From an uncultured Verrucomicrobiae bacterium (GTDB taxonomy: Bacteria; Verrucomicrobiota; Verrucomicrobiia; Chthoniobacterales; UBA10450), in contig CAWKJF010000001.1 in the NCBI GenBank assembly GCA_963850015.1, positions 456,391-520,390 on the forward strand: a stretch of DNA of 64,000 nucleotides, given 5' to 3'. This document shows, piece by piece, positions 36,017 through 60,912 of the stretch. Position 1 is the stretch's first letter. The number at the start of each line of letters is the position of its first letter. The translations under genes and the position numbers were made by a program. Under the pieces are notes generated by a model. That model searched no databases, had not been told where the DNA came from, and saw nothing but the letters and a program-made list of their open reading frames with translations.

Positions 36017-38464
36017 TCACTCGTGACGGAGAGCGACCATCGGGTCGACCTTCATGGCACGTCGCGCTGGCAGATAGCTGGCGATCAACGCGGCCAGCAC
36101 AAGCAAGGAGACGACGGCAAGATAAGTCGCGGCATCAGCGCCGCCGATTCCGTAAAGAAGCGTCGATAGAACACGCGTCGCTCCGAGCGCGGCCACGATC
36201 CCCGTGCCGATTCCGATCGCGACCAGCATGAGACTTTGGCGCAAGACCATTTGGAGCATGTCACCGCGCTGCGCACCAAGCGCCATGCGAATGCCAATCT
36301 CCTTTGTCCGCTCCGAGGTGATGTAAGACATGATCCCGTAAAGCCCCACCATCGCGAGCGCGAGGGCCGCTCCGGAAAAGAGGCCGAGCATCGTCATGGT
36401 GAAGCGCCGGTTATCGAGCGACGTGGAGACCAGCTCTTCCAGCGTCCGGAAGTTCGTCGGCATTTCCGGATTCAACGCCCGCGCTTCGCGCCGCATGGCC
36501 GCGATCAAGGTCGCGGGATCGCCGCGGCCGCGAAGAACAATCTCGAACCGCGCAGCGTGGCGCGGTCGCTGAAAGTAATTCACGTAAACCATCGGCCGTG
36601 GCTCCGCGTCCAAACTTTCATCCCGCACATCGGCCACCACGCCGATGATATGCAGCAATCGGAGATCGCCATCCATCCCGCCAAATTGTAATTGCCGGCC
36701 GACCGGATCTTCGCCGGGCCAGGTCGAACGGGCGAGCGTCTGGTTGATCAGCGCCACGTGCGGCGAGTCGGCGCCGTCAGATTCCTGAAACAGCCGTCCG
36801 CGAATCAGCGGAATCTCCATGCTGGCGAAATAGCCGGCGCTCGCGACGCGGAATTCCGCATTCGCCAGTCTCTTGGTTCCCCTCAGCGCGGCATATTGTT
36901 CGTTTAACGCGTCGAACGTCTCCACCGATTTCCCGCTTTGTTCGAGAATGAAAGTGCCGTTTTCGCTGTCGCCGCTCATTGGCAATACGTTAATTCCGCC
37001 GACCGCGATCACGCCTGGGAGGCCGCTCAAACGCTCGAGCAGTCGCTGATACATCTGCGCGAGCCGACGCCGATCGGCTGGCGCGTCCGGGTCCGGCTGC
37101 GAGATGCTCATCGCGACCGCGCTCTCCGGTTGAAATCCGGGATTCACCTCCAACAAGCGCAGAAAACTGCGGCCGAGCAGGCCTGCGCCCACGAGCAGGA
37201 TCAGGGTTAGCGCGACTTGCGCGACGATGAAAAAATTGCGCACCCGCGAAGTTGGACGACCACTGGACGTCCCGCGCCCCGCGTCCTGGAGCGCATCTTG
37301 CAATTGTCGCTGCGAGACGTTCAACGCAGGGACCAGACCGAGGACGACCCCAACGCCTAACGAGACAACCAGCGAGAAGATAAGCACGGATAAATTGACT
37401 CCTATCTCGCCGACGCGCGGAAGGTTGCCGCGATAAAACCCGACGACCAGATCGACGCCCCAAAACGCCAGGAGCACTCCGAGCGTTCCCGCGCAAAGCG
37501 TGAGCAGGACGGTCTCGACCAGGAATTGCCGGGCCAATCTCCAGCGCGAAGCCCCCAGCGCCGCGCGCAAGGCCACCTCTTTGCGCCGGGCCGTTGCCCT
37601 CACCAGCAGCAGGTTGGTGACATTCGAACAAGCGATCACGAGCAGCAGCCCGACGGCGCCGCAGAGCACCCAGAGGACTCCGCGAATATCCTTCACCATC
37701 CGTTCGCGCAGCGGCGTCATTCCAAAACTCTCGGCATCGGTGTTCGGCCCGTGTTCGCGTTTCAACTGCTGCCCGATGGCTGCAATCTCCGCGCGCGCCT
37801 GTTCGGGCGAGACGCCATCACGCAGCCGTCCCATGGCCCGCCAGTTGTGTCCGGTCCGCGATGGATTGGGCGGATAAATTGTCGAGGGAAACCAGACGTC
37901 GATGTCTGGTGGAAATCCCATGTCAGGCGGCAGGACGCCGACGACGGCAAAACTGCCGCTCGCAAAACGAAGGGTCGCACCTTCCAGGTTGGTTCGGCCC
38001 GCCAGCAAGCGTTTCCAGAACCCGTAGCTGACGACGGCAACTTGGTTGCCTTCGGTTCCCGAGGGCGTGGAAAAGAACCGCCCGGCAAACGGCGTTACGC
38101 CCAGGACTCGGAAGAAATCCTCAGAGACCGCAGACACATTTGTGCGCACCGGCTCGCTCCCGCCGGCTATCGCTTCAGTTCCCTCGCTGTACTTGGCAAG
38201 CGCGGCAAAGCTGCGGCTGCGCGTGTGCAGATCGTCGAAGTTCGGTTCGGCGAAAGCCATGCCACGGCCTTTCTCGTCCAGCTCGCGGAGCGCGACGATT
38301 CGCTCCTGTTGCGGATACGGGAGCGGTCGCAAAAGAACCGCGTCGAGCACACTAAAGATCGCCGTCGAAGCGCCAATCCCGAGGGCCAGGGTGACGAGAG
38401 CAATCGCAGTAAAGGAGGGAGTCTTGCCTAACGAACGCAGCGCGTATTTGAGATCGTTGATCAT
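36017..38464 (-). CDS. Double-FtsX (MacB/ADOP-type) ABC transporter permease, copy 1 of 7
   Basis: The ORF is intact. The likely start is the ATG at 38464 (MINDLKYALRSLGKTPSFTAIALVTLALGIGASTAIFSVLDAVLLRPLPY); the ORF track's start at 38524 adds 20 unlikely residues. It has two MacB-like periplasmic domains and two 4-TM FtsX modules (LLVIACSNVTNLLLVRATARRKEVALRAALGASRWRL; [24 protein letters not shown]). Confidence 0.9.
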   Translation of the reverse strand: MINDLKYALRSLGKTPSFTAIALVTLALGIGASTAIFSVLDAVLLRPLPYPQQERIVALRELDEKGRGMAFAEPNFDDLHTRSRSFAALAKYSEGTEAIAGGSEPVRTNVSAVSEDFFRVLGVTPFAGRFFSTPSGTEGNQVAVVSYGFWKRLLAGRTNLEGATLRFASGSFAVVGVLPPDMGFPPDIDVWFPSTIYPPNPSRTGHNWRAMGRLRDGVSPEQARAEIAAIGQQLKREHGPNTDAESFGMTPLRERMVKDIRGVLWVLCGAVGLLLVIACSNVTNLLLVRATARRKEVALRAALGASRWRLARQFLVETVLLTLCAGTLGVLLAFWGVDLVVGFYRGNLPRVGEIGVNLSVLIFSLVVSLGVGVVLGLVPALNVSQRQLQDALQDAGRGTSSGRPTSRVRNFFIVAQVALTLILLVGAGLLGRSFLRLLEVNPGFQPESAVAMSISQPDPDAPADRRRLAQMYQRLLERLSGLPGVIAVGGINVLPMSGDSENGTFILEQSGKSVETFDALNEQYAALRGTKRLANAEFRVASAGYFASMEIPLIRGRLFQESDGADSPHVALINQTLARSTWPGEDPVGRQLQFGGMDGDLRLLHIIGVVADVRDESLDAEPRPMVYVNYFQRPRHAARFEIVLRGRGDPATLIAAMRREARALNPEMPTNFRTLEELVSTSLDNRRFTMTMLGLFSGAALALAMVGLYGIMSYITSERTKEIGIRMALGAQRGDMLQMVLRQSLMLVAIGIGTGIVAALGATRVLSTLLYGIGGADAATYLAVVSLLVLAALIASYLPARRAMKVDPMVALRHE

Positions 38465-38487
38465 ATTGTTTGGAGCGACGCTGGAGC

Positions 38488-38540
38488 CGCCCCGCTCAGT
38501 CGGGGCGTTGGGGAAACACGGCACGGCGACAGAGCGCCGT
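38488..38540. repeat. REP-like intergenic hairpin pair
   Basis: One hairpin is CGCCCCG-CTCAGT-CGGGGCG (38488-38507) and the other is ACGGCG-ACAGAG-CGCCGT (38523-38540). The first is an inverted near-copy of the hairpin at 41086-41105. Confidence 0.7.
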
Positions 38541-38568
38541 AGTTACAGCGGTTTGTCTCGACACAACC

Positions 38569-41001
38569 TTACTCATAGCGGAGTGCGACCATGGGATCGA
38601 CCTTCATGGCCCGCCGGGCCGGGATGTAACTGGCCAGCAACGCAGCCGCAGCCAGGAGGAAAATCACGATCGCATATGTCGACAGATCGTTCGCTCCGAC
38701 ACCGTAGAGCAGTGTCGCCATCACGCGCGTGGCGCCGAGCGCGACGAGGAATCCGATCGTAATTCCGATCGCGACAAGCGTGAGACTTTGGCGGAGCACC
38801 ATGCCCAGCATCTGGGTTTTCTGCGCACCAAGCGCCATTCGAATCCCGATTTCTCTCGTGCGCTGGGTCACGCTGTAGGCGATGACGCCGTAAATGCCGA
38901 TGGCCGCGAGGACCATGGCCACGCCAGCGAAAACCGCGAGCAGCATCATGTTAAAACGCGGCTGCGCCAGATGGGTCGCGAGAAATTTCGTCATCGGCTC
39001 GAGCGTGGGGACGTACAGGTCCTTGTCGATCTCGCGCACCGCGCGTTTTACGTCCGCGCTCAGGCCGACGAGATTCGCCGAGCTGACCCTCAGCACAATA
39101 TCGAGGCTGCGACCCGGGTCCTGCGCGAACGGCACGTACACCTCGGGGCCTTGCAGCTCGGCGAGTGAATCATGCCGGGTGTTGCCGACCACGCCCACGA
39201 CTTCGCGCGCTAATGTCTTATTCTCCGGCTGGTCCATGATTACCTGCTGGCCAATCGGATTCCGGTCGGAGAAATGTTTTTTGACGAACGCTTCGTTGAT
39301 CAGGATGACCGGCGGCGAATCCTTCGTGTCCGAGCGGTTCAGGTCGCGTCCTTGCAGGATCGGAATCTTCATCGCCTTGAAATAATCCGGCTTTACCAGG
39401 AGGTAGCTTCCGCCCGGATGATTGCCTCGCGGCAGCGGCGCGGCGCCGCTCGGCATGAACGACAAGGAGCGTTGGTTATCGCCCAGAGGGAGCGGATTGA
39501 CGCCGCCCGCCGCTTCCACTCCAGGAATAGCCGCCAGTTTTTCCATGATCAGATCGTAGGTGCGGATTTGCTGGTCTATCTCCGGGTAACGAATTCGGGG
39601 CAGAGTGATCGACATTGTCATCACCCGGACCGGGTCGAAGCCTGGATTGGTCGCGCGAAGGTTGAAGAAGCTCTTGATCAACAGACCGGCGCCGGCGAGC
39701 AGGAGCAAGGAGAGGGAGACCTGCGACACGACGAGAAACGCGCGAAGACGATTGGTGTGGAGTCCGCCGGTCGATCCTTTCGCTCCCTGTTGGAGCGATT
39801 CATTCACCGCGGGCCTCGAAACCTGGAGGGCGGGAATAAGACCGAAAAGCAGCGTGCTCCCAATCGCGAGGACAAAGGTAAACGCGCAAACGGTCGTGTT
39901 CACTTTGATCTGGCCCAGATGCGGTAATCCTTGCGGACCGGCCGCGCTGAGGAGGTCCACGCCCCACCAGGCCAGAAGCAAACCGGCGCACCCGCCGAGC
40001 ACCGCGAGCAGCAAGCTTTCGCAAAGTAATTGGCGAACAACGAGCGCACGACTCGCGCCGAGCGCCGTTCGAATGGCCATCTCGCGACTGCGGGAGGCCG
40101 CCCGCGCCAAAAGAAGGTTCGCCACATTCGCGCACGCGATGAGCAGGACAAGGGCAACCGCGCCGACAAGGACCATCAACGCCGGGCGAACATCGCCCAC
40201 GACATCCGAATGCAGCGTCACTACCGCGGCGCCGGTAAAGTTCAGGTTCGTATCCGGGTATTGCTTCGATAGCCGGCTCGCGATCGCACTCAGCTCCGCT
40301 TCCGACGTCTGGATCGCAACTCCCGGCTTGAGCCGGCCCACCACAGTCAAAAAGTGAGACCCGCGGTTACCCAGGAATTGCTGGCCGAGATACTCAAGGG
40401 GCAGCGCATAATCGATGTGTTCGTCCTCGACCGGAAATTTCCAGCTCGGCGGCATCACCCCGACCACAGTATGCGGACGCGCCGAAATGGTGATCTTCTG
40501 GCCGATAATGTTCGGATCGCTGCCAAACGCGCTTTTCCAGAGCGGATAAGTCAGGACAACGACGCGGTCCGCTTCGTTTTTCGCGTCTTCCTTGGTGAAT
40601 CCGCGTCCAAGCAGCGGTGGGACTCCCAGAACATCGAACACCTCCGGTGTGATCGCGAGTCCTTCGAGCGCCTTGGCATCTTCGGCGAGCGACAGCGTCC
40701 CCCCGGTCCGGGTGTAGGCGGCCATCCCGACGAAGCTCTGGCTTTGATCGCGCAGGTCCACAAAGTCTGGGAATGAGTGGACACTTCCTCGCACCCGCCC
40801 GTTGTCGTTCGCGTAGCGCCCCCAGACGTGGACAATTTCGTCCGGGTTCTTGAAGGGCAACGGCCGGAGCAAAAGGGTATCGATCACGCTGAAGATGGCG
40901 CTGTTGGCGCCGATACCGAGAGCGAGGGTGAGGATGGCGATTACGGCGAAGACCGGAGCTTTAATCAGCATTCGCAAGGCGTATTTGAGGTCGTTTAACA
41001 T
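38569..41001 (-). CDS. Double-FtsX (MacB/ADOP-type) ABC transporter permease, copy 2 of 7
   Basis: The 810-aa ORF is intact: [50 protein letters not shown]...[33 protein letters not shown]...[24 protein letters not shown]. Confidence 0.9.
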   Translation of the reverse strand: MLNDLKYALRMLIKAPVFAVIAILTLALGIGANSAIFSVIDTLLLRPLPFKNPDEIVHVWGRYANDNGRVRGSVHSFPDFVDLRDQSQSFVGMAAYTRTGGTLSLAEDAKALEGLAITPEVFDVLGVPPLLGRGFTKEDAKNEADRVVVLTYPLWKSAFGSDPNIIGQKITISARPHTVVGVMPPSWKFPVEDEHIDYALPLEYLGQQFLGNRGSHFLTVVGRLKPGVAIQTSEAELSAIASRLSKQYPDTNLNFTGAAVVTLHSDVVGDVRPALMVLVGAVALVLLIACANVANLLLARAASRSREMAIRTALGASRALVVRQLLCESLLLAVLGGCAGLLLAWWGVDLLSAAGPQGLPHLGQIKVNTTVCAFTFVLAIGSTLLFGLIPALQVSRPAVNESLQQGAKGSTGGLHTNRLRAFLVVSQVSLSLLLLAGAGLLIKSFFNLRATNPGFDPVRVMTMSITLPRIRYPEIDQQIRTYDLIMEKLAAIPGVEAAGGVNPLPLGDNQRSLSFMPSGAAPLPRGNHPGGSYLLVKPDYFKAMKIPILQGRDLNRSDTKDSPPVILINEAFVKKHFSDRNPIGQQVIMDQPENKTLAREVVGVVGNTRHDSLAELQGPEVYVPFAQDPGRSLDIVLRVSSANLVGLSADVKRAVREIDKDLYVPTLEPMTKFLATHLAQPRFNMMLLAVFAGVAMVLAAIGIYGVIAYSVTQRTREIGIRMALGAQKTQMLGMVLRQSLTLVAIGITIGFLVALGATRVMATLLYGVGANDLSTYAIVIFLLAAAALLASYIPARRAMKVDPMVALRYE

Positions 41002-41035
41002 GGGATGGGTTCTGTTAGTCGCGGTTCATTTCAAG

Positions 41036-41114
41036 CGCTGTAGCAACGGTCCCGCGGCTGCGGGATCGCCCGCTCGCTCCGAAGGCGCCCCGACAGAGCG
41101 GGGCGGCTACAGCG
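41036..41114. repeat. REP-like structured intergenic element (nested hairpins)
   Basis: An outer stem pairs CGCTGTAGC (41036-41044) with GCTACAGCG (41106-41114). It encloses TCCCGC-GGCT-GCGGGA (41050-41065) and CGCCCCG-ACAGAG-CGGGGCG (41086-41105). Confidence 0.7.
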
Positions 41115-41132
41115 TGGGATGCTGTGATACTC

Positions 41133-41801
41133 TTAGACGACAAATCCATCGCGGAGCTGGATGATGCGGTTACCGTAGGTCGCGTTTATATCGGAGTGTG
41201 TGACCTGGATGATCGTGGTGCCGCCGGCATTCAAGGTCTTGAACATCTCCATGATCTCCTTGCCCTGGTCGGAGTGAAGATTGCCGGTCGGTTCGTCGGC
41301 CAGGATCAGTTTCGGATTCGCGATCATCGCCCGGGCGATGCTGACCAGTTGCTGTTGCCCGCCGGAGAGCTGGCGCGGATACAAATCTTTTTTTCCGACG
41401 ATGTGAAATCGATCCAGCGCGTCACAGACAATCGAATCGCGCCCGGCTTTGTTCACGTGGCGGTAGGAAAGCGGGATATCCAGATTCTCATAGACCGTCA
41501 GGTCATCGAGCAGGTGATAGTTCTGGAAGACGAAACCGATCTTTTCATTCCGGAGGGTGGCGCGTTCCTTTGGCTTGAGGGTGTGAATCGGATCCTCTTC
41601 GAAAAAGTATTCGCCGCTCCAAGCATGATCGTGCATCCCGAGCACGTGCAGCAGCGACGACTTGCCGGCGCCGGAAGGGCCCATGATGGAAACGAAATCG
41701 CCTTCGTTGACCTCCAGGTTGATATCGCGCAGGACGTAAAAGAATTTGCCCTTCGCGAGAGGGTAAAAACGTTCGAGGTGTTTGAGATGGATCATGGACA
41801 T
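41133..41801 (-). CDS. ABC transporter ATP-binding protein (MacB/LolD-type), copy 2
   Basis: The ORF is intact, with Walker A ([11 protein letters not shown]), Q-loop, signature ([14 protein letters not shown]), Walker B (LILADEPTG) and H-loop (VTHS). Confidence 0.92.
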
Positions 41802-41806
41802 AATAA

Positions 41807-44221
41807 TTAATTCTGGGCTAGCGCGACGGTGGGGTCCAGCCGGGCGGCGCGGCGCGCCGGCAAGTAACAGGCAATAAGAGCAACGAAAATCAGGAGGAAC
41901 GGAATTCCGAGGAAGGTCGCGGGATCGGTCGCGGGAACGTCAAACAACAAGCTGGCGATGACTTTTGCCAGACCAAGCGAGCCCGCTAGGCCGACCGCCA
42001 CGCCGATGAGCGTGAGCACCATCCCCTGTCTGATCACGAGACGAAGCACGTCGCCGGTCTGCGCGCCCAACGCCATGCGAATGCCGATCTCTTGAGTGCG
42101 TTGCGTGACCGAATAAGCCATTACGCCGTAAATCCCAACGGCGGCCAGAATCAGCGCGGCGCCGGCGAAAACAGTAAAGAGCAACGTCGAAGCACGGCGC
42201 GTCCCCATCGACTGCGCGACCACGTCTTCCATGGTGCGGACGTTGTAGATCGGCTGGTCCTTGTCGATGCTTAGCACTTCACGGCGCACGGCCGGAGCCA
42301 TCGCGGCCGGATCGCCGGCGGTGCGAATGACCAGCGCCATGAAACCCCAGCCCGCGTCCTGAGCATGCGGCACGTACATCTGCGCGCCCGCATCAATATC
42401 CAAAGAATTTGGCTTGCTGTCGCCGACCACCCCCACGATTTCGCGCGGGAACTTTTCGTCGCGCCAGATTGTCATGCGCTTGCCGAGGGCCGCTTCAGGC
42501 GAACCGAATGATTGCGCCGCCATCGACCTGTTGATCAGAGCAACTTTGGGCGCGTCTTCTGTATCGCGATCGGTGAAGCCCCGGCCGGCGATCAACGGAA
42601 TCTGGAGGGCCTGGAAATATTCCGGGGTGATGGCGGAGAAACTGGCATTCCGTGATTCCTCCGTCGTCATCGGACGGCCCTCCGGAATATAGGCCCGGCC
42701 GATCTGATAGCCGCTGGCCCCGAGCGGAAGATTGACGCCTGCGCCCACAGATTGGACTCCAGGCAATGCTCTTAGCCGTTCGATCAAATCACGGAAAAAT
42801 TGCGCCCGCTGTGGATTCTCCTTGTACTTCGCACCGGGAAGGGAGATGGAAACGGTCAGCACATTCTGCGGATTGAAGCCGGGTTTCACTTCCTGAAGAC
42901 GGAGGAAGCTTTTGATGAGCAAGCCGGCGCCAACCAAAAGCATGAGCGACAGCGCCACTTCGCCGATCAGCAAAACGCTGCGCGCGCTCGTGCGGCGATT
43001 TCCTTCGCCCGTGCGGCCCCCTTGTTTCAACGAACCGCTCACGTCCAACTTGGAAGCTTGCAACGCCGGCACGAGACCAAAGACGAGCCCGGTCAGGCCT
43101 GAGAGGGCGATGGTGAAGGCCAGCACACGGTAGTCCAGATTCACTTCGCCGAAGCGCGGGCTATCCGGTGGGCTCAGCGAGACGAGGAGTTCGGTCAGCC
43201 AGGCGCTCAAGAACAATCCGAGCGCACCACCAATGATCGAAAGCAGCAGACTCTCCGTGAGCATCTGCCGGACGATGCGCGTCCGGCGCGCACCGAGCGC
43301 GGTGCGGATCGCGACTTCTTTTTCGCGTGACGCAGCCCGGGCGAGAAGAAGGTTCGCCACATTGGCGCAGGCAATGAGAAGGACAAGTGCGACTGCGCCC
43401 AGAAGGACGAGCAACGATGGCCGGACATCTCTGACGAGACGCTCCTGAAACAGCGACAGGTTCGCGTCCCAACCGGTATTCGTTTCTGGATACGCTTTTG
43501 CGAGTTGCGCGTTGATTGTGCTGACTTGGGTTTGCGCCTGTTGAAGTGGCACGCCGGGTTTGAGGCGGCCAATCACTGAGAAGGAGCGATTGTCGCGCGG
43601 CTCTTCCTGCGGATCGATCGGCACACTCCACCAGACCTGCGTGCCCTCGGGGAAATCGAAGCCCGGCGGCATCACTCCGACCACGGTTCGCGGAAGGCTG
43701 TTGATCACGACCTGCGTGCCAACAATCTTCGGATCGCCGCCAAAGCGCCGTTTCCACAAGCCATCGCTCAGAATAGCGACGTTCTCCTTTTTGGGCTGGT
43801 CTTCCTCGGGAAGGAACGCTCGGCCAATCGCCGGCTGGACTCCAAGCACGGGAAAAAAACTGCTGCTCACCCCGGCCCGCGGCACCCGCTCCGGTTCGCT
43901 GTTCGGCGCGGAAAAGGTGGCGCTGGCGGTGTAAAAGTGCGCCAGGTGCGAAAAAGCCTCGAGTTTCGACCAGTCGAGGTAATCGGGGAACGAGACATTG
44001 CTGTCGGTAATGCCGCTCGTTGGGTTTCGCCCATCGAAGTAGACGATTTGCTCCGGATTCGGATAGGTGAGCGGCCGGAGGAGAACGCCATTCACCAGGC
44101 TGAAGATGGCGGTGTTCGCGCCGATACCTAGCGCGAGGGCGATGATGGCGACCGCGGTGAAACCTTTGTGCTTTAAAAGCATGCGAAGGCCGTAGCGAAT
44201 GTCCTGAAAGAGAGTGTTCAT
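41807..44221 (-). CDS. Double-FtsX (MacB/ADOP-type) ABC transporter permease, copy 3 of 7
   Basis: The 804-aa ORF is intact ([51 protein letters not shown]...). The stop is 5 nt before the ATPase start. Its start overlaps the amidohydrolase stop by 4 nt. Confidence 0.9.
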   Translation of the reverse strand: MNTLFQDIRYGLRMLLKHKGFTAVAIIALALGIGANTAIFSLVNGVLLRPLTYPNPEQIVYFDGRNPTSGITDSNVSFPDYLDWSKLEAFSHLAHFYTASATFSAPNSEPERVPRAGVSSSFFPVLGVQPAIGRAFLPEEDQPKKENVAILSDGLWKRRFGGDPKIVGTQVVINSLPRTVVGVMPPGFDFPEGTQVWWSVPIDPQEEPRDNRSFSVIGRLKPGVPLQQAQTQVSTINAQLAKAYPETNTGWDANLSLFQERLVRDVRPSLLVLLGAVALVLLIACANVANLLLARAASREKEVAIRTALGARRTRIVRQMLTESLLLSIIGGALGLFLSAWLTELLVSLSPPDSPRFGEVNLDYRVLAFTIALSGLTGLVFGLVPALQASKLDVSGSLKQGGRTGEGNRRTSARSVLLIGEVALSLMLLVGAGLLIKSFLRLQEVKPGFNPQNVLTVSISLPGAKYKENPQRAQFFRDLIERLRALPGVQSVGAGVNLPLGASGYQIGRAYIPEGRPMTTEESRNASFSAITPEYFQALQIPLIAGRGFTDRDTEDAPKVALINRSMAAQSFGSPEAALGKRMTIWRDEKFPREIVGVVGDSKPNSLDIDAGAQMYVPHAQDAGWGFMALVIRTAGDPAAMAPAVRREVLSIDKDQPIYNVRTMEDVVAQSMGTRRASTLLFTVFAGAALILAAVGIYGVMAYSVTQRTQEIGIRMALGAQTGDVLRLVIRQGMVLTLIGVAVGLAGSLGLAKVIASLLFDVPATDPATFLGIPFLLIFVALIACYLPARRAARLDPTVALAQN

Positions 44222-52875: not shown

Positions 52876-55296
52876 TTATTCATACCGAAGCGCTTCCATC
52901 GGATCTAAACGCATGGCCGCGCGCGCGGGCAAATAACAGGCCGCCAAGCCCACGACGAACAGAATCAACGGCACCAGCGCAAAGCTTGGAGGGTCGTGCG
53001 CGGAAATTCCATGCAGACTTCCAGCCAGTAACTTGGCCAGGAAATAAGCGCTGACGAATCCGATCACGAGGCCGAGCAAGATGAGCCGGAAACCCTGCCC
53101 GGTTACTAGCCGTAAGACATCGCCCGTTTGCGCGCCCAGAGCCATTCGCACTCCAATTTCCTGGGTGCGCTGGCGGACCGAATAAGCCATCACGCCATAG
53201 AGTCCGAGCGAGGCGAGGAAAAGCGCCAGGCCGGCGAAGATGGTGAAGAGCGTCCCGAAAAATTTTCGGTCCCAGAACGATTGCGCCAGCACTTCCTCCA
53301 TGGTGAAAATGCGATAGATCGGCAGGTCTTTGTTCACCGACAAGACCGTCGTGCGCGCGAGGTTGGCAAACTTGGCGGGATCGGTCTTGGTGCGAACCAT
53401 GACGGAAAGGAAACGGTCCGAGATTTGATCCTGCGCGAAATAAACCACCGGCATCGGACGCCGCTTGGTCAATCGCTCGTAAACAACCGGCCGGACGATT
53501 CCCACAATCGTCACCCACCTGGGTGGTTCGCCGGGTCTGTCGAGCGTGCGCAACTGCCGACCAATCGGATCTTCATTCGGAAACCAGGCGCGGGCGCCGT
53601 CTTCATCGATCAAGGCGACCCGAGGCGCGTCCTTGTTGTCGGCCGGCGTGAAATCCCGGCCTCGCAACAGGGGAATGCGCGCCGTCTGGAGATACCCTGG
53701 GGTGATAGTCATCTGGCGCAACTTGCGGGCATCCTGGAGCTGTTTCGGCTCCGGTTCGCCTTCGAGCATGAAAGCGGTGCTGCCGATGTTCCCCGACGCC
53801 GGCAAAGAAGTGGTCGCGCCGGCTGATTCCACGCCAGGGAGACTGGCCAGCTTCGGAATGAGCTGCTCAAAGAATTGCGCGGCCGACTCCTTGGCCGGAA
53901 ATTGCGCCTCAGGCAATCCCACCCGGAAGGTCAAAGTTTGAGACGGATCAATCCCGATGTCCGTCTTTTGCAAATTCATGAAGCTGCGCATCATGAGTCC
54001 CGCGCCGATCAACAAAACCAGACGCAAGCGCCACTTCCGCGACGACGAGCGAGTTGCGCACGCGCTGGCCTTTCGCGCCGCCGCCGCCGGTGCGTCCGCC
54101 TTCCTTAAGCACGTCGACCAGATGAGGATGCGAGGCCTGAAGCGCCGGCAACAAGCCAAAGAGAACACTCGAAACTGCTCCTATGCCGAGCGCAAAGGAG
54201 AAAACCCTCCAGTCGAAATCGAAGTGAATCCAGTAGGGCACGTCATTCGGCAGCGCCGCTACCATGAGGTCCACGCCCCAGACGGCAAAGAGCAACCCAA
54301 GCGCGCTGCCCACCATGCCGAGCACCAGGCTTTCGGCCAGAAGTTGCCGGATGATCTGCCGCCGGCTCGCGCCCTAACGCGAGGCGAATCCCGATTTCCT
54401 TGGCTCGGGTGGCACCGCGCGCCAAAAGGAGATTCGCGACGTTGGCGCAGGCGATCAGATGCACAAAAAGCACCGCGCCCATGACTAGCAGCGTGAGCGT
54501 CTTAACGTTCCGGACCATCTCCTCCCGAAACGGCGTTCACGTGCACGCTTACGCCGGTGTTTGTCTCCGGATGTTGCACCGCAATCCGTGCTGTGATCGC
54601 CTCGAGTTCGGCGCGGGCCTGCTCGATCGAAACGCCCTTCTTCATCTTGCCGATGCAATCGAGGAAGAAATTGCCGCGCGGATTATCTTTCTCATTCATC
54701 TGGAGCGGCATCCAGATGTCGCAAGTTTCGGGGAAGCGCCAGCCCTTGGGCATTACCCCCACGATCGTCACCTGTTTGCCGTTGATCGGAATCGTCTTCC
54801 CGACAACGGCGCGATCAGCGCCGAAATGATTTTGCCAGATGTCGTAGCCGATCAGAGCGACCGGCGCTGCGTTGAGCTGGTCTTCTTCTGGGCGAAAAAG
54901 CCGGCCGAGGATCGGTTGCACGCCGAGAAAGGAAAACGCATCGGCTGAGATTTGACCGCCGAGATAACGCTCCGGCTTGTCCCCACCCGAGATGATGAAG
55001 GTCGCTTCCTGGATCGTCGCGATCCCTTCCAGCGTGGTTACGCTCTTCTTCCATTCGAGATAATCCGGGAAGGCGGTGCCGGCATTCTGGTCGGCGTTCT
55101 TCAGAAAGTATTCCGAGACGGCGACGAGACGATCCTGGTCCTGGATCAGGGGCATCGGCCGCAGGAGGAGCGCGTTGATGCACGAGAACATCGTCGTCGA
55201 CGCGCCGATCCCGAGCGCAACGGCCAGGACGGAAATGATAGTAAACCCAGGGGTCTTTACGAGCATCCGACAGGCATATCTAAGATCTCGTAACAT
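52876..55296 (-). pseudogene. Double-FtsX (MacB/ADOP-type) ABC transporter permease, copy 7 of 7, three frame breaks
   Basis: The fragments are 54502..55296 (MLRDLRYACRMLVKTPGFTIISVLAVALGIGASTTMFSCINALLLRPMP), 54243..54518 ([30 protein letters not shown]), 53948..54325 and 52876..54168 ([24 protein letters not shown]...PARAAMRLDPMEALRYE). The breaks are near 54510, 54330 and 54040. Confidence 0.88.
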
Positions 55297-55349: not shown

Positions 55350-56093
55350 TTAGGCGGCCATCCGGTCTTCGACTACGCGGCCGTCGAAGAGATGGATGGT
55401 GCGATCGGCATGTTCGGCAAAACGGGTGTCGTGCGTCACCATGCAAATCGTCGCGCCGCCGGCGTGCAACTCCTTCAACAGAGCCATGACGGCGTCGCCA
55501 TTGCGTGAGTCAAGGTTGCCCGTCGGTTCGTCCGCCAGGAGGATGGCCGGTTTGCCGGCGAGAGCGCGCGCCACGGCGACACGCTGTTGCTGGCCGCCCG
55601 AGAGCTGGCTGGGTAAATGCTTGGCGCGATGGCCCATGCCGACGCGCTCGAGCGCCTCGAGCACGAAAACTTTCCGCTCGCTCGCGCCCATGCCGCGATA
55701 GGTCAGAGGCAGCTCCACATTTTCAAACACGGTCAGATCGCCGATGAGATTGAAGCTCTGGAAAATGAACCCGATTTCCCGATTGCGAATGCGCGCCCGA
55801 TCTGGAAACGAGAGGTTCGCCACCTCGGTGCCCTTCAGCGAATAACTGCCGCCCGACGGGGTGTCGAGCAGACCGAGAATCGAGAGCAGGGTGGATTTGC
55901 CGCAACCCGATGGTCCAGCGATCGAGACGTATTCGCCCGTGCGGATATCCAGATGAATGCCGGAGAGTGCATGCGTTTCCACCTCGTCGGTCAGGAACAC
56001 TTTCGTGACGCCGTCGAGATGAATGAGTGTGTTAGCTCCGTTCGCGCCGGGAGCGCGAGCAGGTTGTTCGTTGATGGTTTCGGTTGAGGCCAT
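55350..56093 (-). CDS. ABC transporter ATP-binding protein (MacB/LolD-type), copy 1
   Basis: The ORF is intact, with Walker A (GPSGCGKSTLL), signature (LSGGQQQRVAVARA), Walker B (ILLADEPTG) and VTHD. An N-terminal extension of about 25 aa precedes the ABC domain. Confidence 0.92.
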   Translation of the reverse strand: MASTETINEQPARAPGANGANTLIHLDGVTKVFLTDEVETHALSGIHLDIRTGEYVSIAGPSGCGKSTLLSILGLLDTPSGGSYSLKGTEVANLSFPDRARIRNREIGFIFQSFNLIGDLTVFENVELPLTYRGMGASERKVFVLEALERVGMGHRAKHLPSQLSGGQQQRVAVARALAGKPAILLADEPTGNLDSRNGDAVMALLKELHAGGATICMVTHDTRFAEHADRTIHLFDGRVVEDRMAA

Positions 56094-56128
56094 GATGGTT
56101 GGATTAGGGTCTTGTTTTTAGTTATCTG

Positions 56129-57459
56129 CTAGTTAAGGCGGATGCGTTCGTGAGCGTCCATTGAACTGGTATCGGAAAGGATGACTTGGTCGCCGGGTTC
56201 GAGACCGCTCAGGATCTCGATCGTGTTGACCGAGCTGCGGCCGAGCTTCACCGGCGTCCGGACCGCTTCCGAACTGCCTGCGACCAATTTGAAAATGCCG
56301 ACGGTGTTGTTCTCCTGGCCAAAGGCCGGGCGGCCGACGTAGATCACATTATCTAAACGTTCCAGCTCGATGGTTCCGTCTACGCTTAAGATCGGGCCGG
56401 GCGCCTTTCGGCAGGTCGCCGTCGATGGCCACGTCCACCGTCACGGTCCCCTGCTCCACCGCGGGATCGACGCGAATGACATGACCGGCCACAATGCCGT
56501 TCCGCGTGTCGATCGAGGCGACCTGGGCGTTCATAATATCTTTCGCCTGCGTTTCCGCGATCTTGACCTGCGCCTTGAGCTTGGTCGGATCGGCCACGCG
56601 CGCCAGGTTATCTCCGGGTTTGACGCGTTGCCCGATTTGCACCGGCAACTGCTGCAGGACCCCGTCCATGCCGGCTTTCACATGCAGCTGCTCGACTTGA
56701 TCCACTTTTAGTTTCGCGAATTCCTTCGCTTGATCGACCGCGGCTTGCTTCGAGGCGATCTGCGGCTCAATCGAGTCGCGGGAAAATGCGAGGCGCTTGT
56801 TTTCGATCTCGTCCCGGTTGGCGAGCTCCGCCTCTTTTACCTTCGATGTCTTGTAAACCAATTCGGAAACCAGGCCGTTCTTGGCCAATTGATCGTTGGT
56901 CTGCCGCTCCATCTTGGCCTGTTCGTACTCGGAATGAACCCGCGCCGTAATCGATTCCTGGTCGAGCAACTCGCGCTGAAGCGTCGCGCGCAAGGTGGTC
57001 AGCTCCGCTTCCGCCGCCTTCGCTTTCGATTCCGCGTCGCCAGCCGTTTGTTCGAGCTCCGGGCTGGTCAACTCCAGAATAACCGTGTCGGGTCTGCACC
57101 GGTGTGCCGGGCCAAACCACGATTTTTTCGACGCGTCCTTCGGTGTTCGCAGCAATCCAGCGGATATCCACCGGAACCAGCGTCCCCAGGCCGCGGACCT
57201 GGCGCACCATCGGGCCGCGCTTGACCGTATCGATCCAAACCGTCGAGCGATCCACGCTCGGCACGGCCGGTTTGAGCCGCGAAAGCAGGAACGTCACGAG
57301 AATCAGTCCGAGGATCGAGCCGGCGATGATGATGATCCGGCGCTTGCGTTTTTGTTTGGCGACGTGTGGGCGCGGGACATCCATGGCAGAGGCAGTTGAG
57401 GTGAAGCCGCTCGGCCGCACAATAGTAGTATCCATTTTTGCTTCCGAGCTTTTTGACAT
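56129..57459 (-). pseudogene. HlyD/MacA-type periplasmic adaptor (membrane fusion protein), two frame breaks
   Basis: The N-terminal TM anchor is RRIIIIAGSILGLILVTFLL. Then come the lipoyl/barrel segments (GLGTLVPVDIRWIAANTEGRVEKIVVWPGTPVQ), a long coiled coil (ELEQTAGDAESKAKAAEAELTTLRATLQREL...) and the C-terminal beta domains (GIVAGHVIRVDPAVEQGTVTVDVAIDG...VIYVGRPAFGQENNTVGIFKL). The pieces are ORFs 56767..57459, 56349..57155 and 56129..56347. The start may instead be the ATG at 57435. Confidence 0.85.
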
Positions 57460-57573
57460 TGGGGTGAGATGGTTAGAGCGACTCCGAACGATCGGACCAG
57501 ATGGAGGATCGCGCCGACACTGGCCATGATCGGCACAGCGGCTGTCATCACGATCACGGTGAACAAGGCGACT

Positions 57574-57789
57574 TCACGCGCAAAAGTGGTGAGGCGCTTC
57601 GTACTTGAAGTAATCCTGGCTGATCGAACGAAATGAAGGCTGGCGGGAACCGAAGCAGCGACCGCCGCCATTCGCGAGCGACGAAGCCTGAAAGCTGTAA
57701 TCGGTCTTGGGAAGGGCGGAGCCTTCGCGAAAGTCGCGATCGCAAAGATCGCGGCGGCTCTTTTCGTTGAACTGGATGGTTGGTTTCAT
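57574..57789 (-). CDS. Small ORF (71 aa as sequenced) directly behind the sigma-54 promoter; possibly the N-terminal part of a ~100-aa tail-anchored membrane protein
   Basis: The ATG at 57789 is preceded by AGGAAAG with an 8-nt spacer. The product is MKPTIQFNEKSRRDLCDRDFREGSALPKTDYSFQASSLANGGGRCFGSRQPSFRSISQDYFKYEAPHHFCA. Just after the TTTT run at the stop, another frame encodes a GC3-rich hydrophobic helix (EVALFTVIVMTAAVPIMASVGAILHLV). I do not recognise a family. Confidence 0.4.
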   Translation of the reverse strand: MKPTIQFNEKSRRDLCDRDFREGSALPKTDYSFQASSLANGGGRCFGSRQPSFRSISQDYFKYEAPHHFCA

Positions 57790-57863
57790 ATTCTTATCTT
57801 TCCTGTGAGATGCACTTCGCAGTCTCAATCGGATTCAAAATCTTTGTTGGCGGGCGAAGCTAT

Positions 57864-57879
57864 TGCAATGGCCGTGCCA
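57864..57879 (-). promoter_or_regulatory. Sigma-54 (RpoN) -24/-12 promoter
   Basis: The minus strand reads TGGCAC-GGCCA-TTGCA, a full match to the consensus TGGCAC-N5-TTGC(A/T). It lies 75 nt upstream of the ATG at 57789 and immediately downstream of a sigma-54-dependent activator and kinase pair. Confidence 0.8.
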
Positions 57880-57910
57880 CGGGTCTAAACAAAGTTATAA
57901 AACTCTGTTA

Positions 57911-57926: not shown

Positions 57927-58020
57927 CGTTGCCTCAAAATCCGATGCGCTGGAAAAGCTTCGGTAGTGGGATTCCACTCGTCCCGATTGTGGGACGACCG
58001 CTGCGCCGAAATTCCAAGTC

Positions 58021-58120: not shown

Positions 58121-58140
58121 CAACTTCGGGCTTTGGGATT

Positions 58141-59478
58141 CTACTTCGGCAGCCGCAAGAGCGCTTCGCAGCCCGGCCCGCTCGCGATTCGCCAGAGTCA
58201 ACGATCCGCCATGCGCTTCCGCGATCTGCCGGCTGAGCGCCAGGCCAATCCCCGACCCACCCGGCTTGGTCGTGAAAAACGGCACGAACAAATTCGTCGG
58301 GTTCATGATGCCGGGTCCGGTGTCGCGCACAAACACCTCGACGCACTCGGCCAAATCGCGCCAGCCCGTCGTCACAGTTCCCGCCGTTTCGAGGGAGGCT
58401 TCCGCCGCGTTGTGCAGAATGTTGATGAGCAATTGTTCCAGTTGCGCGGCGTCCGCCTGAGTGATCATTTCCGGTCCCGGAACGACGCGCACTGGAATCC
58501 GCGTCTCCAAACTCGCCACCCGCCTAACGAGTTCACCGAGATCGACCGCTTCCTTTTGCGGAGGAGGCAGGCGCGCCAGCCGTGCGTAGGCCTGCATGAA
58601 ACGGCTGAGCGATTCCGCGCGCGTCGCGATGATGTTCAATCCGCTGCGGGCATCATCGCGCCAATCCGCCGGCGGCGGATCGCGCCGGATCAATGTTTCC
58701 AAACTGCCGGCAATCGATTTGATCGGCGCGAGCGAGTTATTCATCTCATGGCCGATCACACGCACGAGGCGCTGCCAGGCGTTGCGCTCTTCCTCGCGGA
58801 GCGTGCGGCTCAGGTCCGTCAGCACCAGCAACTCGTGCGGCAGACCGCGTTCGCGGAAATGAACTTCGGCGCACGCCCCATCTTCCGGAGCCGCCCGGGA
58901 ACGTGAGCGTCAGCGGCGCGTCCTCGTTCGCGTCCAGGCAGACGTCCAGCCCAATATCTCGCGCGCGTCGGCCGAGCAGTTTGTCCATCGGTTGCCCGAG
59001 CAGGTCTTCGCCCGCGCGGTTGACCAGGCGCAAGCGGCGGTCCGGATCGAAGGTGAAAACCGCCACATCGATTTCCGCCATGATCGTCCGGAGGAGCGCC
59101 GTGGCCTCGAACGCGCCGAGCCGTTGCAAACCGGAGCGTTTCGCCCAGCGCATTGATTTCCAGCATCGCTTCGCCGAGGGCGTCGTCCGGCACGGGCGCC
59201 GCGGGCGCGAATCGAATAATCGCCTTCGCGCAACGCGGCGAGCAGGTTCGTCATCGTTTGCAGCGGGCGGATAACGTGTTCGCGCGCGCTCAGGATGAAG
59301 CCGAGCGCAGCAGCCGGCAATCACAAGCGTCAAAGTCCACTGAACTTTTGCGGTGTGATCGCCAAACCAAAGCAGGGCCAGCGCGATCGACGAACGCCGG
59401 CGCCGCGGCGCAAAGCGTCAGCCAGGTCAGACGGCCTTCGTGCGTAATCCGCTGCCGCAGCTTCTTGATCGCCTTCAT
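58141..59478 (-). pseudogene. HAMP/PAS sensor histidine kinase (NtrB/AtoS-like), at least four frame breaks
   Basis: The N-terminal TM region and HAMP (LLAALREGDYSIRARGA...LGEAMLEINALGETLR), a PAS domain (IMAEIDVAVFTFDPDRRLRLVNRAGEDLLGQ), HisKA (VIGHEMNNSLAPIKS) and HATPase (ILHNAAEA...VRDTGPGI...FVPFFTTKPGGSGIGLALSRQIAEAHGG) are present. The true tail SGPGCEALLRLPK ends at 58141-58143, after a break near 58190. Confidence 0.85.
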
Positions 59479-59565
59479 GGTGGACCGAGCGCTGCGCTCG
59501 ATCTAGTGGCGCGGCGTATCGCCGGCATCATCACCAGACCGCGGCCGGCGCGGCCGCCTCTACAC

Positions 59566-60912
59566 CTATAGCCCATACTGCTGGAGCCGGCGATAAAACG
59601 CGCTCCGGCTCAGCCCCAATGCTTCCGCCGCTTTGCGCGCGTTTCCATCGAAGCGCGACAGCGCCTTCTTGATCAGGAAAGATTCCACTTCCTCCAGGCT
59701 CATGTCTTCCAGCCGCGGCGAATCCTGTGTTCCACTCGTTAGGCCAAGATCGTTCGCCTTGACCTGCTGGCCTTGCGTCATCAGGACCGCCCGCTCCACC
59801 ACGTGATCCAGCTCGCGAACATTCCCGGGATACGGTGCTGCATCAGAATGTCGCGCGCCGCTTCCTCGAATCCGGTCAATGTCTTGCGATATCGTTTCGC
59901 ATGCTGGCGAAGAAAACTATTCGCCAGGAGCATGATGTCCTCGCGCCGTTCGCGCAGAGGCGGCAACGCGATCTCGATCGTGTTCAGCCGGAAAAGAAGG
60001 TCCTGCCGGAAACGGCCCGCGGCCACTTCCTCATGCGGGTTGGCGTTCGTCGCCGAAACGATCCGCACATTCGCGTGCAACGTTTTCGAAGAACCCACGC
60101 GTTCGAACTCGCCCGTCTCGATCATCCGCAGCAATTTCGCCTGCTGATTCATCGGCACGTTCGCGATCTCATCCATGAAGAGCGTGCTCTCGTCCGCCAG
60201 CTCGAACCGTCCCGCCCGGTCCGTCTTCGCATCCGTAAACGCGCCCTTCACATGGCCAAACAACTCACTCTCGAAAATTCCCTCCGAGAGCCCGCCCATG
60301 TTCACCGTGATCATGCTGTGCGACGCCCGCGGTGAGAGCGCGTGCAGAGCCTGCGCCACCAACCCTTTCCCGGTGCCGTTTTCGCCGGTGATCAGAACGT
60401 TCGCGTCCGACGGCGCGACGCGCGAGATCAACTCGAGCACCGGCCGCATCCGCGGCGATTCCGCGATGAGATTCGGCGCGTTGCCGCGCAATAATTGATT
60501 CGCCGCTTCCAGCCGGCGGCCTTTCCGCAACGCGCCCGCCAGCTCGATCTGCGTGCGCACAATCGCGAGAAGCCGGTCATTGTCCCACGGCTTCGGAATA
60601 AAATCGCGCGCGCCCGCGCTTCATCGCTTCCACCGCCAGATCAATCGTCGCCCACGCCGTCATGACCACGATCGGCAGCGTGTTGTCGAGCGCCTGAATC
60701 CGCGGAATCACCTCGAGCCCTTCCTGCCCCGACGTCGTGTCGCGCGTGTAATTCAGATCCATGATCAGCAGCGCGTAATCCTTTTTCTCGAGCGCCTGAA
60801 AAGCTCCCGCGAGCGACGTCACCGCATCCGTCTGATGCCCTTCCCCCTTGAGCAAAATGCGCAGCGCCTCCAGCACATCGTTCTGGTCGTCCGCGATCAG
60901 GATCCTGCTCAT
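59566..60912 (-). pseudogene. Sigma-54-dependent response regulator (NtrC family: REC + AAA+ + Fis-type HTH), two frame breaks
   Basis: The REC domain is ORF 60577..60912 (ILIADDQNDVLEAL...LLIMDLNY...VVMTAW). The AAA+ domain is ORF 59781..60560 (VLITGENGTGKGLVA, ESELFGHVKGAFTDA containing the GAFTGA-type loop, LFMDEI, RVGSSK). The HTH is ORF 59566..59802 (NARKAAEALGLSRSAFYRRLQQYGL). The breaks are near 60590 and 59800. Confidence 0.9.

Follow-up and report, generated by a model that had tools for sequence, protein, structure and literature searches.

The duplicated permeases of the ADOP (acidobacterial duplicated orphan permease) family, modelled as TIGR03434, were originally described, as we take it, as restricted to Acidobacteria and as 'orphan', that is with no adjacent gene for an ATP-binding cassette (ABC) ATP-binding protein. 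Their relatives with known roles are MacAB, DarBCD, PvdRT, YknXYZ, BceAB and HrtBA, and in the canonical E. coli macAB arrangement the tolC gene is unlinked. Here we examine an array of seven ADOP permeases in a 64,000-nucleotide (nt) stretch of DNA (hereafter the window; positions 456,391 to 520,390 of contig CAWKJF010000001.1) from an uncultured Verrucomicrobiae bacterium of the Chthoniobacterales, where they share one strand with a membrane-fusion adaptor, two ABC ATPases, an amidohydrolase and a two-component regulator pair.

Among the systems described so far, YbbAP-TesA pairs a Type VII transporter of the fused-FtsX kind with a periplasmic hydrolase from the same locus (PMC12646458). Furthermore, genomic island 43 of Psychroflexus torquis carries a 42-kb cluster of about ten ADOP paralogues and ATP-binding transporters, which is abundant at the protein level and was described without a known function (Feng et al. 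2014, PMC3914696). Our literature searches found no functional study of ADOPs or of such operons, and a term search of the main text of the sigma-54 survey by Francke et al. 2011 gave nothing on operons of this kind.

The outline of the locus is real and biologically coherent: soil Chthoniobacterales commonly carry it in conserved form, and it represents a variant within a machine class already known. As to what it does, our preferred reading, held at about even confidence, is a Type VII (MacB-type) ABC system for envelope export or extraction that is inducible and has grown by tandem expansion, with a fixed engine serving variable substrate modules.

Seven duplicated permeases on one strand

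Every array gene lies on the minus strand, from 60912 down to 36017, in a single co-directional block whose gene order had been correctly given in an earlier note made from the letters of the window. Tight or overlapping junctions link most of the genes, and those quoted in the earlier note as signs of co-translation are exact, with ATGA overlaps at 47809-47812 and 44218-44221, a gap of 7 nt (45370-45376) between 45369 and 45377 and a gap of 5 nt (41802-41806) between 41801 and 41807. Eight open reading frames (ORFs) are intact, namely five permeases of 804-815 amino acids (aa), two ABC ATPases and one amidohydrolase. The seven permeases of ~ 810 aa that had been announced hold by homology, as all seven pass TIGR03434 once corrected, but only five of them are ORFs. 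Indeed, tblastn with an intact paralogue finds copies 6 and 7 as full-length homologues scattered across several frames, and these two copies, the adaptor and the regulators are unreadable without the correction of probable sequencing errors. The genes had earlier been taken as readable as they stand, and the frameshifts in permease copies 6 and 7, in the adaptor and in the regulator pair went unnoticed. All array genes are described below as read after frameshift correction.

The model TIGR03434, 'ADOP family duplicated permease', has a curated cut-off of 622.3 bits for the whole-protein score, and the five intact copies reach 883-1024 bits. Counted from the distal end of the array, these are copy 1 (36017..38464, 815 aa from the ATG at 38464, 883 bits), which is the array's last gene, copy 2 (38569..41001, 810 aa, 976 bits), copy 3 (41807..44221, 804 aa, 1024 bits), copy 4 (45377..47812, 811 aa, 990 bits) and copy 5 (47809..50244, 811 aa, 998 bits), the last two sharing an ATGA overlap. 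Copy 6 (50302..52769, 818 aa after removal of 11 inserted bases) and copy 7 (52876..55296, 805 aa after removal of three inserted bases at 54531, 54374 and 54022) score 954 and 947 bits in their corrected form. The N-terminal motif that had been ascribed to each permease is present in its strict form in three of the seven copies, and the other four carry a looser variant.

In all seven copies Pfam recognises an internal duplication with two MacB_PCD and two FtsX domains. Eight transmembrane (TM) helices are predicted by hydropathy for the copies and by an AlphaFold model for copy 4, in which they are ordered as TM1, alpha/beta domain, TM2-4, linker, TM5, alpha/beta domain and TM6-8. The best full-length fold match of this model is E. 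coli YbbP (9GE6/9GE7; template-modelling score ~ 0.5, E = 1e-19), followed by MacB, Spr0695, LolE/LolC, BceB, HrtB and YtrF, and a sequence search of the PDB with the permease gives matches only to MacB, Spr0695 and YtrF. The hallmark of the Type VII module is present: of its four TM helices, TM1 and TM2 are separated by a large periplasmic domain, and TM2 and TM3 by a coupling helix. Given these fold matches and the order of helices and domains, the model presents an ADOP as a Type VII ABC permease that joins both protomers of a MacB-like dimer in one polypeptide.

Identity among the seven copies is 37-48%, except for copies 3 and 4, which both flank the amidohydrolase and are 65% identical. 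Each copy has orthologues in related genomes at 65-91% identity: copy 7 is 65% identical to L002_104, copy 6 is 89% identical to L002_2552 and 62% to L087_10799, copy 5 is 85% identical to L001_5053 and copy 2 is 90% identical to L001_16713 (L numbers denote the loci compared, described below). A neighbour-joining tree separates at least ten ADOP clades among these loci; copy 6 belongs to the 'core' clade, the sole ADOP type in the minimal locus L087. By these comparisons the paralogues are old and maintained. The earlier note had proposed essentially identical periplasmic domains, as left by a simple recent amplification, as the outcome that would speak against specialisation. This is ruled out by the 37-65% identity among paralogues together with the 65-91% orthologues of each copy, and the periplasmic domains, at 34-35%, stand apart from the TM and coupling regions at 52-57%. 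In detail, mean paralogue identity is 57% for the N-terminus and TM1, 52% for TM2-4, 49% for the linker and TM5 and 54% for TM6-8, and falls to 34% in periplasmic domain 1 and 35% in periplasmic domain 2, to which the indels of the seven copies are confined. Both halves of the permeases contain the coupling motif R..E(I/V)(A/G)IR.ALGA, and the two cytoplasmic coupling segments are near-invariant across the seven copies yet differ between the halves, the segment of half 2 reading GIYGV.AY.V.QRT.EIG.RMALGAQ. As far as sequence comparison goes, conserved coupling surfaces beside diverged periplasmic domains fit permeases that share their ATPase and adaptor partners.

Correction counts were obtained by frameshift-aware protein-to-DNA alignment against intact orthologues of related genomes, which called for single-base corrections in copy 7 (3), copy 6 (11), the adaptor (2), the kinase (6-7), the activator (2) and the small ORF (at least 1). 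The total is 26, with one extra base (+1) in 25 of the 26 and neither in-frame stops nor larger lesions. A locus decaying in its source organism, with real frameshifts, a non-functional operon head and only remnants left, would find room in the fact that all 26 disruptions fall between 50.3 and 60.9 kb and none in 36.0-50.25 kb, and that the regulators and the core permease are among the genes struck. We nevertheless consider such decay, which is a question independent of function, improbable. Real bacterial pseudogenes show a deletion bias, while +1 insertions are typical of long-read consensus error; the spectrum seen here is the opposite of the former, and the frameshifts are therefore treated as assembly errors. 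Moreover, the corrected proteins are full length, 65-89% identical to their orthologues and as similar to them as the products of the intact neighbours. Housekeeping genes nearby are broken in the same way: the ComM/YifB-like gene at 61052-62860 is split over four frames that bear consecutive pieces of the Mg_chelatase model, the sigma-70 gene at 63076-63988 is split, and the Lhr helicase and T2SS-F genes are truncated. In a codon-phase plot the phase changes every few hundred bases in 1-36 kb and not in 36-50 kb, and the related long-read contig L081 is fragmented likewise. Since neighbouring housekeeping genes share the damage, assembly error is very probably the cause. Across the window as a whole, +1 frameshifts occur throughout 1-36000 and 50250-64000, a picture that resembles a long-read assembly without polishing, in which one stretch is clean.

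Fixed and variable parts of the locus

Both ATPases are of the MacB/LolD/FtsE/DarD type according to their NCBIfam and PDB matches, and Walker A, Q-loop, LSGGQ, Walker B with the catalytic Glu and H-loop are readable in each. ATPase 1 (55350..56093, 247 aa, intact), with a nucleotide-binding domain (NBD) of the MacB/LolD/DarD type, is 63-64% identical to the single ATPase of each of two cassettes, from Rahnella and from Gloeobacter (both described below; 67% for Gloeobacter in a separate comparison). ATPase 2 (41133..41801, 222 aa, intact) forms a separate NBD lineage, with 43% identity to ATPase 1 of the window (range 41-47%) and 75-95% among its own orthologues. The best NCBIfam match of both is DarD, the ATPase of the darobactin exporter, at 243-251 bits and below the cut-off of 375. 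The HlyD/MacA-type membrane-fusion adaptor (56129..57459, start at 57459 or 57384, two frameshifts) has 417 aa once corrected, with HlyD_3 and HlyD_D23 domains in Pfam, an N-terminal TM anchor and a long coiled-coil hairpin; it is identical by 81.5% to the adaptor of the related locus L082, by 54% to that of Gloeobacter pGMOR1 and by 33% to that of Rahnella.

The first gene after the promoter is a small ORF (57471..57787, ~ 91-105 aa, at least one frameshift, 3' end uncertain). Its family comprises 288 clusters of ~ 91 aa, all annotated 'hypothetical protein', all from Verrucomicrobia/Chthoniobacterales and none with a Pfam domain. The members share the motif S(L/F)R.IS.DYF..EA and a single invariant Cys and end in a TM helix, and the gene occupies the same place in L081, L082, L087, L088 and L089; on this conservation it is a real gene. 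The amidohydrolase (44218..45369, 383 aa, intact) overlaps copy 3 by 4 nt and has a Sec signal peptide and an Amidohydro_1 domain (Pfam), in which the HxH, Lys, His, His and Asp ligand positions are readable. Among solved structures it is closest to the L-Arg carboxypeptidase Cc2672 (3MTW, 8e-60), a second Zn Arg-carboxypeptidase and ochratoxin-degrading amidohydrolases. It is therefore predicted from sequence to be a periplasmic, metal-dependent enzyme of the Arg-carboxypeptidase/ochratoxinase type.

Soil metagenomes contain a very large number of orthologues of ATPase 1 and of copy 4, at 83-97% identity. Eight related loci were fetched, all from soil metagenome-assembled genomes of Verrucomicrobiota/Chthoniobacterales. 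In L081 and L082 the order is activator, kinase, small ORF, adaptor, ATPase 1, three ADOPs, ATPase 2 and again ADOP; L081 has no amidohydrolase and many of its genes are frameshifted. The same head as in L082 is followed by two ADOPs, ATPase 2 and at least two ADOPs in L088, occurs with ATPase 1, ATPase 2 and at least four ADOPs in L089, and precedes one ADOP and ATPase 2 in L087. L001 and L002, in which all genes are intact, show four ADOPs, the amidohydrolase, one ADOP, a serine hydrolase (L002 only), ATPase 2 and two or three ADOPs. The number of ADOPs thus ranges from one (L087) to at least eight (L001) and the position of ATPase 2 shifts, while ATPase 2 itself is present in all eight loci, the single-permease locus included. 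From these gene orders, the head and both ATPases emerge as the fixed parts. Two further insertions into the operon are particular to single lineages: L089 has at 9576-10004 a gene for a 142-aa PF05635 protein (23S rRNA intervening-sequence protein family) between adaptor and ATPase 1, and L087 has at 13959-14825, after ATPase 2, a gene for a 288-aa membrane-anchored DUF4097 'toastrack' protein.

Downstream of the window array, the convergent neighbour of copy 1 is a TPR protein gene (35302-35976, plus strand). The flank further holds YajQ/DUF520 (34041-34526, minus strand) and a Ser/Thr protein kinase (30370-31875, minus strand). TPR and YajQ/DUF520 also lie downstream in L087, and since this pair flanks both loci, the expansion of the array took place where it stands, at a chromosomal position kept in synteny.

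Of the loci compared, only the window, L001 and L002 hold the amidohydrolase, and in three of three cases its stop overlaps the start of an ADOP of the copy-3/4 clade by 4 nt. Its linkage to ADOPs as a general rule was considered and rejected: of 80 amidohydrolase loci in the genome collection, only the two from close relatives carry the array, and the others show no ADOP-like match or one or two that are seemingly incidental. In L002, a gene at 13564-14676 between an ADOP and ATPase 2 encodes a serine hydrolase with a signal peptide and an SxxK motif, of the class-C beta-lactamase/AmpH/D-aminopeptidase family; its sequence marks it as another kind of periplasmic hydrolase that such arrays have taken up besides the amidohydrolase.

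These gene contents also bear on another explanation, in which only the core, that is adaptor, ATPase 1, a copy-6-clade ADOP and ATPase 2, would form a tripartite pump, the extra ADOPs being adaptor-independent mechanotransducers like FtsEX, LolCDE or YbbAP-TesA, each driving or feeding a different periplasmic partner, for instance the hydrolases. The minimal locus L087 contains exactly this core with one copy-6-clade ADOP, the enzymes are inserted beside particular ADOP clades with conserved 4-nt overlaps, the best fold match YbbP partners the periplasmic TesA without an adaptor, and ADOPs of Acidobacteria and Gemmatimonadota occur without adjacent adaptor or ATPase. However, there are just one or two enzymes for seven to nine permeases, the array has no other candidate genes for periplasmic partners, and all copies follow the adaptor gene on the same strand in a single closely packed unit. 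On balance we regard this explanation as unlikely, and the reading of all permeases as modules of one system with a fixed engine is kept in what follows.

ADOPs linked to an adaptor and an ATPase were also found beyond the lineage. Rahnella plasmids, for example pRAHAQ01 of Rahnella aceris (NC_015062.1, 254682-269105), carry genes for an HlyD adaptor, an ATPase, an 809-aa permease, a sigma-54 regulator and a kinase, and each of these five core proteins has full-length homology to its counterpart in the window (adaptor 33%, ATPase 41-64%, permease 30%, regulator 48% and kinase 36% identity), the permease passing TIGR03434 with 685 bits. A sigma-54-like TGGCAC-N5-GTGC element, TGGCACGATTTGTGC, lies ~ 40 nt upstream of the adaptor start codon and a palindrome, TCCCAATATTGGGA, lies farther upstream. 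In contrast to the window, this cassette has one permease and one ATPase, its regulators are downstream, and it lacks the small ORF and the hydrolase. It adjoins MATE, P450, luciferase-like monooxygenase and phosphopantetheinyl transferase genes, and literature searches found no characterisation of it. In Gloeobacter morelensis pGMOR1 (NZ_CP063846.1, 88043-102436), an adaptor, an 83-aa ORF, a maturase, an ATPase, a permease that passes TIGR03434 (788 bits), a Cache kinase and a response regulator stand together. The maturase is of the YhhB/FxsB-like, cyclophane-forming radical-SAM/SPASM type, so that the cluster is apparently one for a ribosomally synthesised and post-translationally modified peptide (RiPP). 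The identities between Gloeobacter and verrucomicrobia, 54% for the adaptor and 67% for the ATPase, suggest horizontal exchange of the exporter module.

The Gloeobacter cluster raises the question of whether the array is instead dedicated to secretion of a self-made product, such as a peptide or RiPP, a glycolipid or a siderophore, in the manner of DarBCD, DevBCA or PvdRT, rather than to defence or detoxification. The closest non-verrucomicrobial adaptor and ATPase are indeed those of Gloeobacter, next to the 83-aa ORF and the maturase, and DarD is the top, if sub-threshold, NCBIfam match of both ATPases. On the other side, neither the window array nor any of the eight related loci holds a maturase or biosynthetic gene, the small ORF ends in a TM helix and has no leader/core organisation, and a variable number of permeases with inserted hydrolases is better suited to varying external substrates than to one fixed product. 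A dedicated secretion role is thus, in our judgement, very improbable, and we retain the reading as an envelope export or extraction system.

The contrasting situation is seen in Gemmatirosa kalamazoonensis, whose plasmids 1 and 2 hold 26 and 29 ADOP-like places (tblastn, 35-44% identity). Two regions of 40 kb were examined, and there the copies lie scattered over both strands, without an ATPase or adaptor close by, which is the classic 'orphan' pattern as opposed to the verrucomicrobial operon. Two ATPases are present in the window array and likewise in all eight related loci, and ATPases also accompany the Rahnella and Gloeobacter permeases; moreover, members from Verrucomicrobiota, Gammaproteobacteria and Cyanobacteriota pass the model. 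Neither an 'orphan' state nor a restriction to Acidobacteria therefore describes these ADOPs, and their linkage to ATPase and adaptor in Rahnella and Gloeobacter means that being 'orphan' is not intrinsic to the family. The earlier note had called the linkage of ADOPs to ATPases unusual, which the examples from Rahnella, Gloeobacter and, as far as its published description goes, Psychroflexus torquis (PMC3914696) contradict; ADOP arrays with ATPases are not new. The Psychroflexus cluster, likened here by description only, differs in belonging to the Bacteroidota and to a genomic island with transposases, and neither sigma-54 control nor an adaptor is mentioned in that description. The idea that the array itself is unusual falls as well, for the same locus, with one to at least eight copies, recurs in many Chthoniobacterales contigs and is ordinary for the lineage. 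The earlier note had also foreseen that its proposal would fail if such arrays were common and had a function assigned; common they are, but the literature searched assigns them no function.

Regulators, promoter and spacers

The first gene of the array (59566..60912, frameshifts at ~ 60615 and ~ 59833) encodes an NtrC-type enhancer-binding response regulator. Its corrected product matches Response_reg, Sigma54_activat (1e-62), AAA_lid_14 and HTH_8 in Pfam, has a GAFTDA loop and a Fis-type helix-turn-helix, and is 84% identical to the intact L082 orthologue in the frameshift-aware alignment. The histidine kinase that follows (58141..59478, ~ 6-7 frameshifts) shows, once corrected, two TM helices with an extracytoplasmic loop of ~ 8 aa between them, then a PAS domain, a phospho-acceptor region and HATPase_c; its Pfam matches are PAS_8, PAS_4 and HATPase_c, and it is 70% identical to the L082 kinase. 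Of the HAMP/PAS kinase proposed previously, the PAS part stands, but no HAMP domain is called by Pfam at E<=0.01. Furthermore, the kinase stop codon is at 58141, not 57921, and the spacer before the small ORF therefore measures ~ 350 nt instead of 130. In Bce-type modules the kinases sense through the transporter or the membrane, and by analogy a kinase with almost no loop may detect its signal inside the membrane or by way of the transporter.

The promoter GTGGCACGGCCATTGCAATAG (57860..57880, minus strand) contains TGGCACGGCCATTGCA at 57864-57879, a perfect sigma-54 -24/-12 consensus (TGGCAC-N5-TTGCW) and the sole exact match in the 64 kb, which bears out the consensus sigma-54 promoter placed earlier at the head of the array. 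It is kept in place in L081, L082, L087 and L088, with a TGGCAT variant in L089. Upstream of it, at 57961..57997 (minus strand), lies a candidate upstream activator site that consists of the palindrome GTCCCACAATCGGGAC and a third half-site, ATCCCAC. A GTCCC-N6/7-GGGAC palindrome with a third TCCCA half-site is found 115-117 nt upstream of TGGCAC in six of the six loci compared for promoter and palindrome (window, L081, L082, L087, L088 and L089), and the window palindrome at 57980-57995 is the only GTCCC-N4-9-GGGAC in the window. This conservation makes it a strong candidate for the site that the activator would bind. In the 5' untranslated region of the window (57788-57860) the motifs TTGAATCC and GC(A/T)TCTCAC are kept, as they are in L081, L082, L087, L088 and L089, the latter motif having one mismatch in L087, and the sequence around both has diverged. 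Rfam recognised no known RNA family in 35.5-61.5 kb, this region included.

A relaxed TGG-N9-TGC scan for internal sigma-54 promoters gave nothing consensus-like in the intergenic gaps of the array, and intrinsic-terminator-like and sigma-70-like sites inside the array were in no excess over shuffled expectation. With neither internal sigma-54 consensus nor such an excess, a single 21.8-kb transcript, and hence expression as one operon, is plausible. Among the spacers, 41002..41132 is structured and carries a repeated element, GCTGTAGCCGCCCCGCTCTGTCG, a second such spacer being 38465-38568. The 23-nt element GCTGTARC-N3-SSCGCTCTGTCG has three occurrences in the window against 0.05 expected, all within these two array spacers, as two inverted copies at 38480-38549 and one at 41091-41113; it may be a REP-like (repetitive extragenic palindrome) or RNA-processing element. 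Spacer 41002-41132 folds to -51.5 kcal/mol (z = -2.1) and, having no T-tract, is not a typical terminator. The spacer between copies 7 and 6 (52770-52875) contains clustered GAATGACGAA-type repeats in a long imperfect hairpin (-30.9 kcal/mol, z = -3.1); over the whole window GAATGACGAA is not enriched (7 matches against 6.8 expected), and only the local cluster at 52793-52857 stands out.

Proposed mechanism and comparison with known systems

Under our reading of the locus, the two-component pair would sense a membrane or envelope signal through its intramembrane-sensing-type kinase (two TM helices, an 8-aa loop and PAS), and the NtrC-type regulator would then bind GTCCC-N6/7-GGGAC ~ 115 nt upstream and activate the sigma-54 promoter. 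The transcript would open with the 91-aa tail-anchored membrane protein, the adaptor and ATPase 1 and would probably span the 21.8-kb array. Since an ADOP is a fused pseudo-dimer, with two modules of TM1, periplasmic domain and TM2-4, each would need two NBDs, which the two ATPases would supply in trans, possibly joined in an ATPase 1/ATPase 2 heterodimer fitted to the two distinct coupling helices. The heterodimer is attractive because both ATPase lineages are kept even with one permease and because the coupling helices are distinct yet conserved. As the coupling surfaces are kept and the periplasmic domains divergent, the seven paralogues are proposed to be interchangeable substrate modules that work by ATP-driven mechanotransmission. 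Each would expel or extract its own compounds from the periplasm or the outer leaflet, by way of the common adaptor and of an outer-membrane channel encoded elsewhere. Together, the divergence of the periplasmic domains, the hydrolases inserted in the array and the roles of the relatives point to peptide-like or amphiphilic compounds at the periplasmic face, most plausibly antimicrobials, with hydrolysis as an accessory step. The periplasmic hydrolases of the array, namely the window amidohydrolase, translationally coupled to a copy-3/4-clade ADOP, and the class-C beta-lactamase-like enzyme of the relative, would degrade or process the extracted compound. The sequences themselves show the gene content, the homologies, how the paralogues diverge, the conserved promoter and palindrome and a copy number that varies around a fixed head. 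Transcription as one operon, the common use of the adaptor and the ATPases, their heterodimer, the class of substrate and the pairing with hydrolases are what we infer within this scheme.

Several points weigh against it. The sharing of partners, the substrates and the expression of the array are argued from comparison of sequences, and stronger divergence of periplasmic than of TM regions is the general pattern of the superfamily, which alone does not prove specialisation. The model of copy 4 has a pLDDT (predicted local distance difference test) of 70 and a pTM (predicted template-modelling score) of 0.51, that is moderate confidence only. The Rahnella and Gloeobacter cassettes have one ATPase gene each, so the permease fold does not require a heterodimer. 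The similarity of the adaptor to MexJ and MacA structures is weak (MacA, E ~ 1e-4). No TolC-like or other outer-membrane factor was found in the array or, in an incomplete scan, among the ~ 20 longest flanking ORFs of the window. Finally, four spacers of 53-131 nt, some of them strongly structured, are possible processing sites, attenuators or internal starts, which tempers the case for a single transcript.

A more specific form of the scheme may be put forward tentatively, as possible without being probable: a combinatorial Type VII machine, in which an ATPase 1/2 heterodimer, the adaptor and the small subunit are shared by one to at least eight permeases, some of them paired with hydrolases like YbbAP-TesA. 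If this were true, the 'orphan' ADOPs of Acidobacteria and Gemmatimonadota would serve in trans as the substrate modules of a small number of shared ATPases.

ADOPs are among the largest paralogous membrane-protein families of soil Acidobacteria and Gemmatimonadota and appear here also in the abundant soil Chthoniobacterales. The locus sets them in a complete functional context of adaptor, two ATPases, regulator pair, defined promoter and embedded hydrolases, and comparison of the relatives separates its fixed from its expandable parts. The machine belongs to a known kind and arrays like it are common, so that its value is that of a lead rather than a surprise; what is new is the anatomy of fixed engine and variable permeases, the pair of promoter and palindrome, the small subunit, the second ATPase lineage and the tractable Rahnella homologue. 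Unlike the uncultured verrucomicrobia, Rahnella is culturable, and the single-copy cassette on its plasmids is a genetically tractable entry to ADOP function.

Compared with MacAB-TolC (5NIK, 5GKO, 5LIL), the array has in common the MacB fold and periplasmic core domain, MacB/LolD-type ATPases and an HlyD/MacA-type adaptor with a long hairpin. It differs in that its NBDs are separate proteins and its permease is a fused 8-TM pseudo-dimer instead of a 4-TM homodimer, and in having seven permeases, two ATPase types, control by sigma-54 and an enhancer-binding protein, and a small membrane protein. The lack of a TolC-like gene in the array, already pointed out in the earlier note, had been taken as a departure from MacAB-TolC logic; it is none, given the unlinked tolC of E. 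coli. DarBCD and RiPP exporters resemble the array in adaptor, separate ATPase and a double-FtsX permease of ~ 780-800 aa. The window, however, has multiple permeases and neither precursor peptide nor radical-SAM maturase, and its proteins score far below the DarB, DarC and DarD cut-offs (DarB at most 34 against 700).

With the BceAB-BceRS-type modules, which detoxify antimicrobial peptides, the array shares an FtsX-domain ABC permease beside a 2-TM kinase with almost no extracytoplasmic loop, and BceB is among the fold matches. The window regulator is NtrC-type as opposed to OmpR-type, its kinase has a PAS domain, its host is diderm and an adaptor is present, and the permeases have 8 TM helices and two periplasmic domains as against 10 and one. 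YbbAP-TesA, the best fold match, likewise combines a fused double-FtsX permease, a separate ATPase and an adjacent periplasmic hydrolase gene; YbbP has 10 TM helices where 8 are predicted for ADOP, the system is single-copy and works without an adaptor, identity is ~ 15%, and its hydrolase is an SGNH esterase whereas that of the window is a metallo-amidohydrolase. Within the ADOP family, finally, the array is distinguished by its host among the Verrucomicrobiota (Chthoniobacterales) and by permeases that share one unit with two ATPases and an adaptor.

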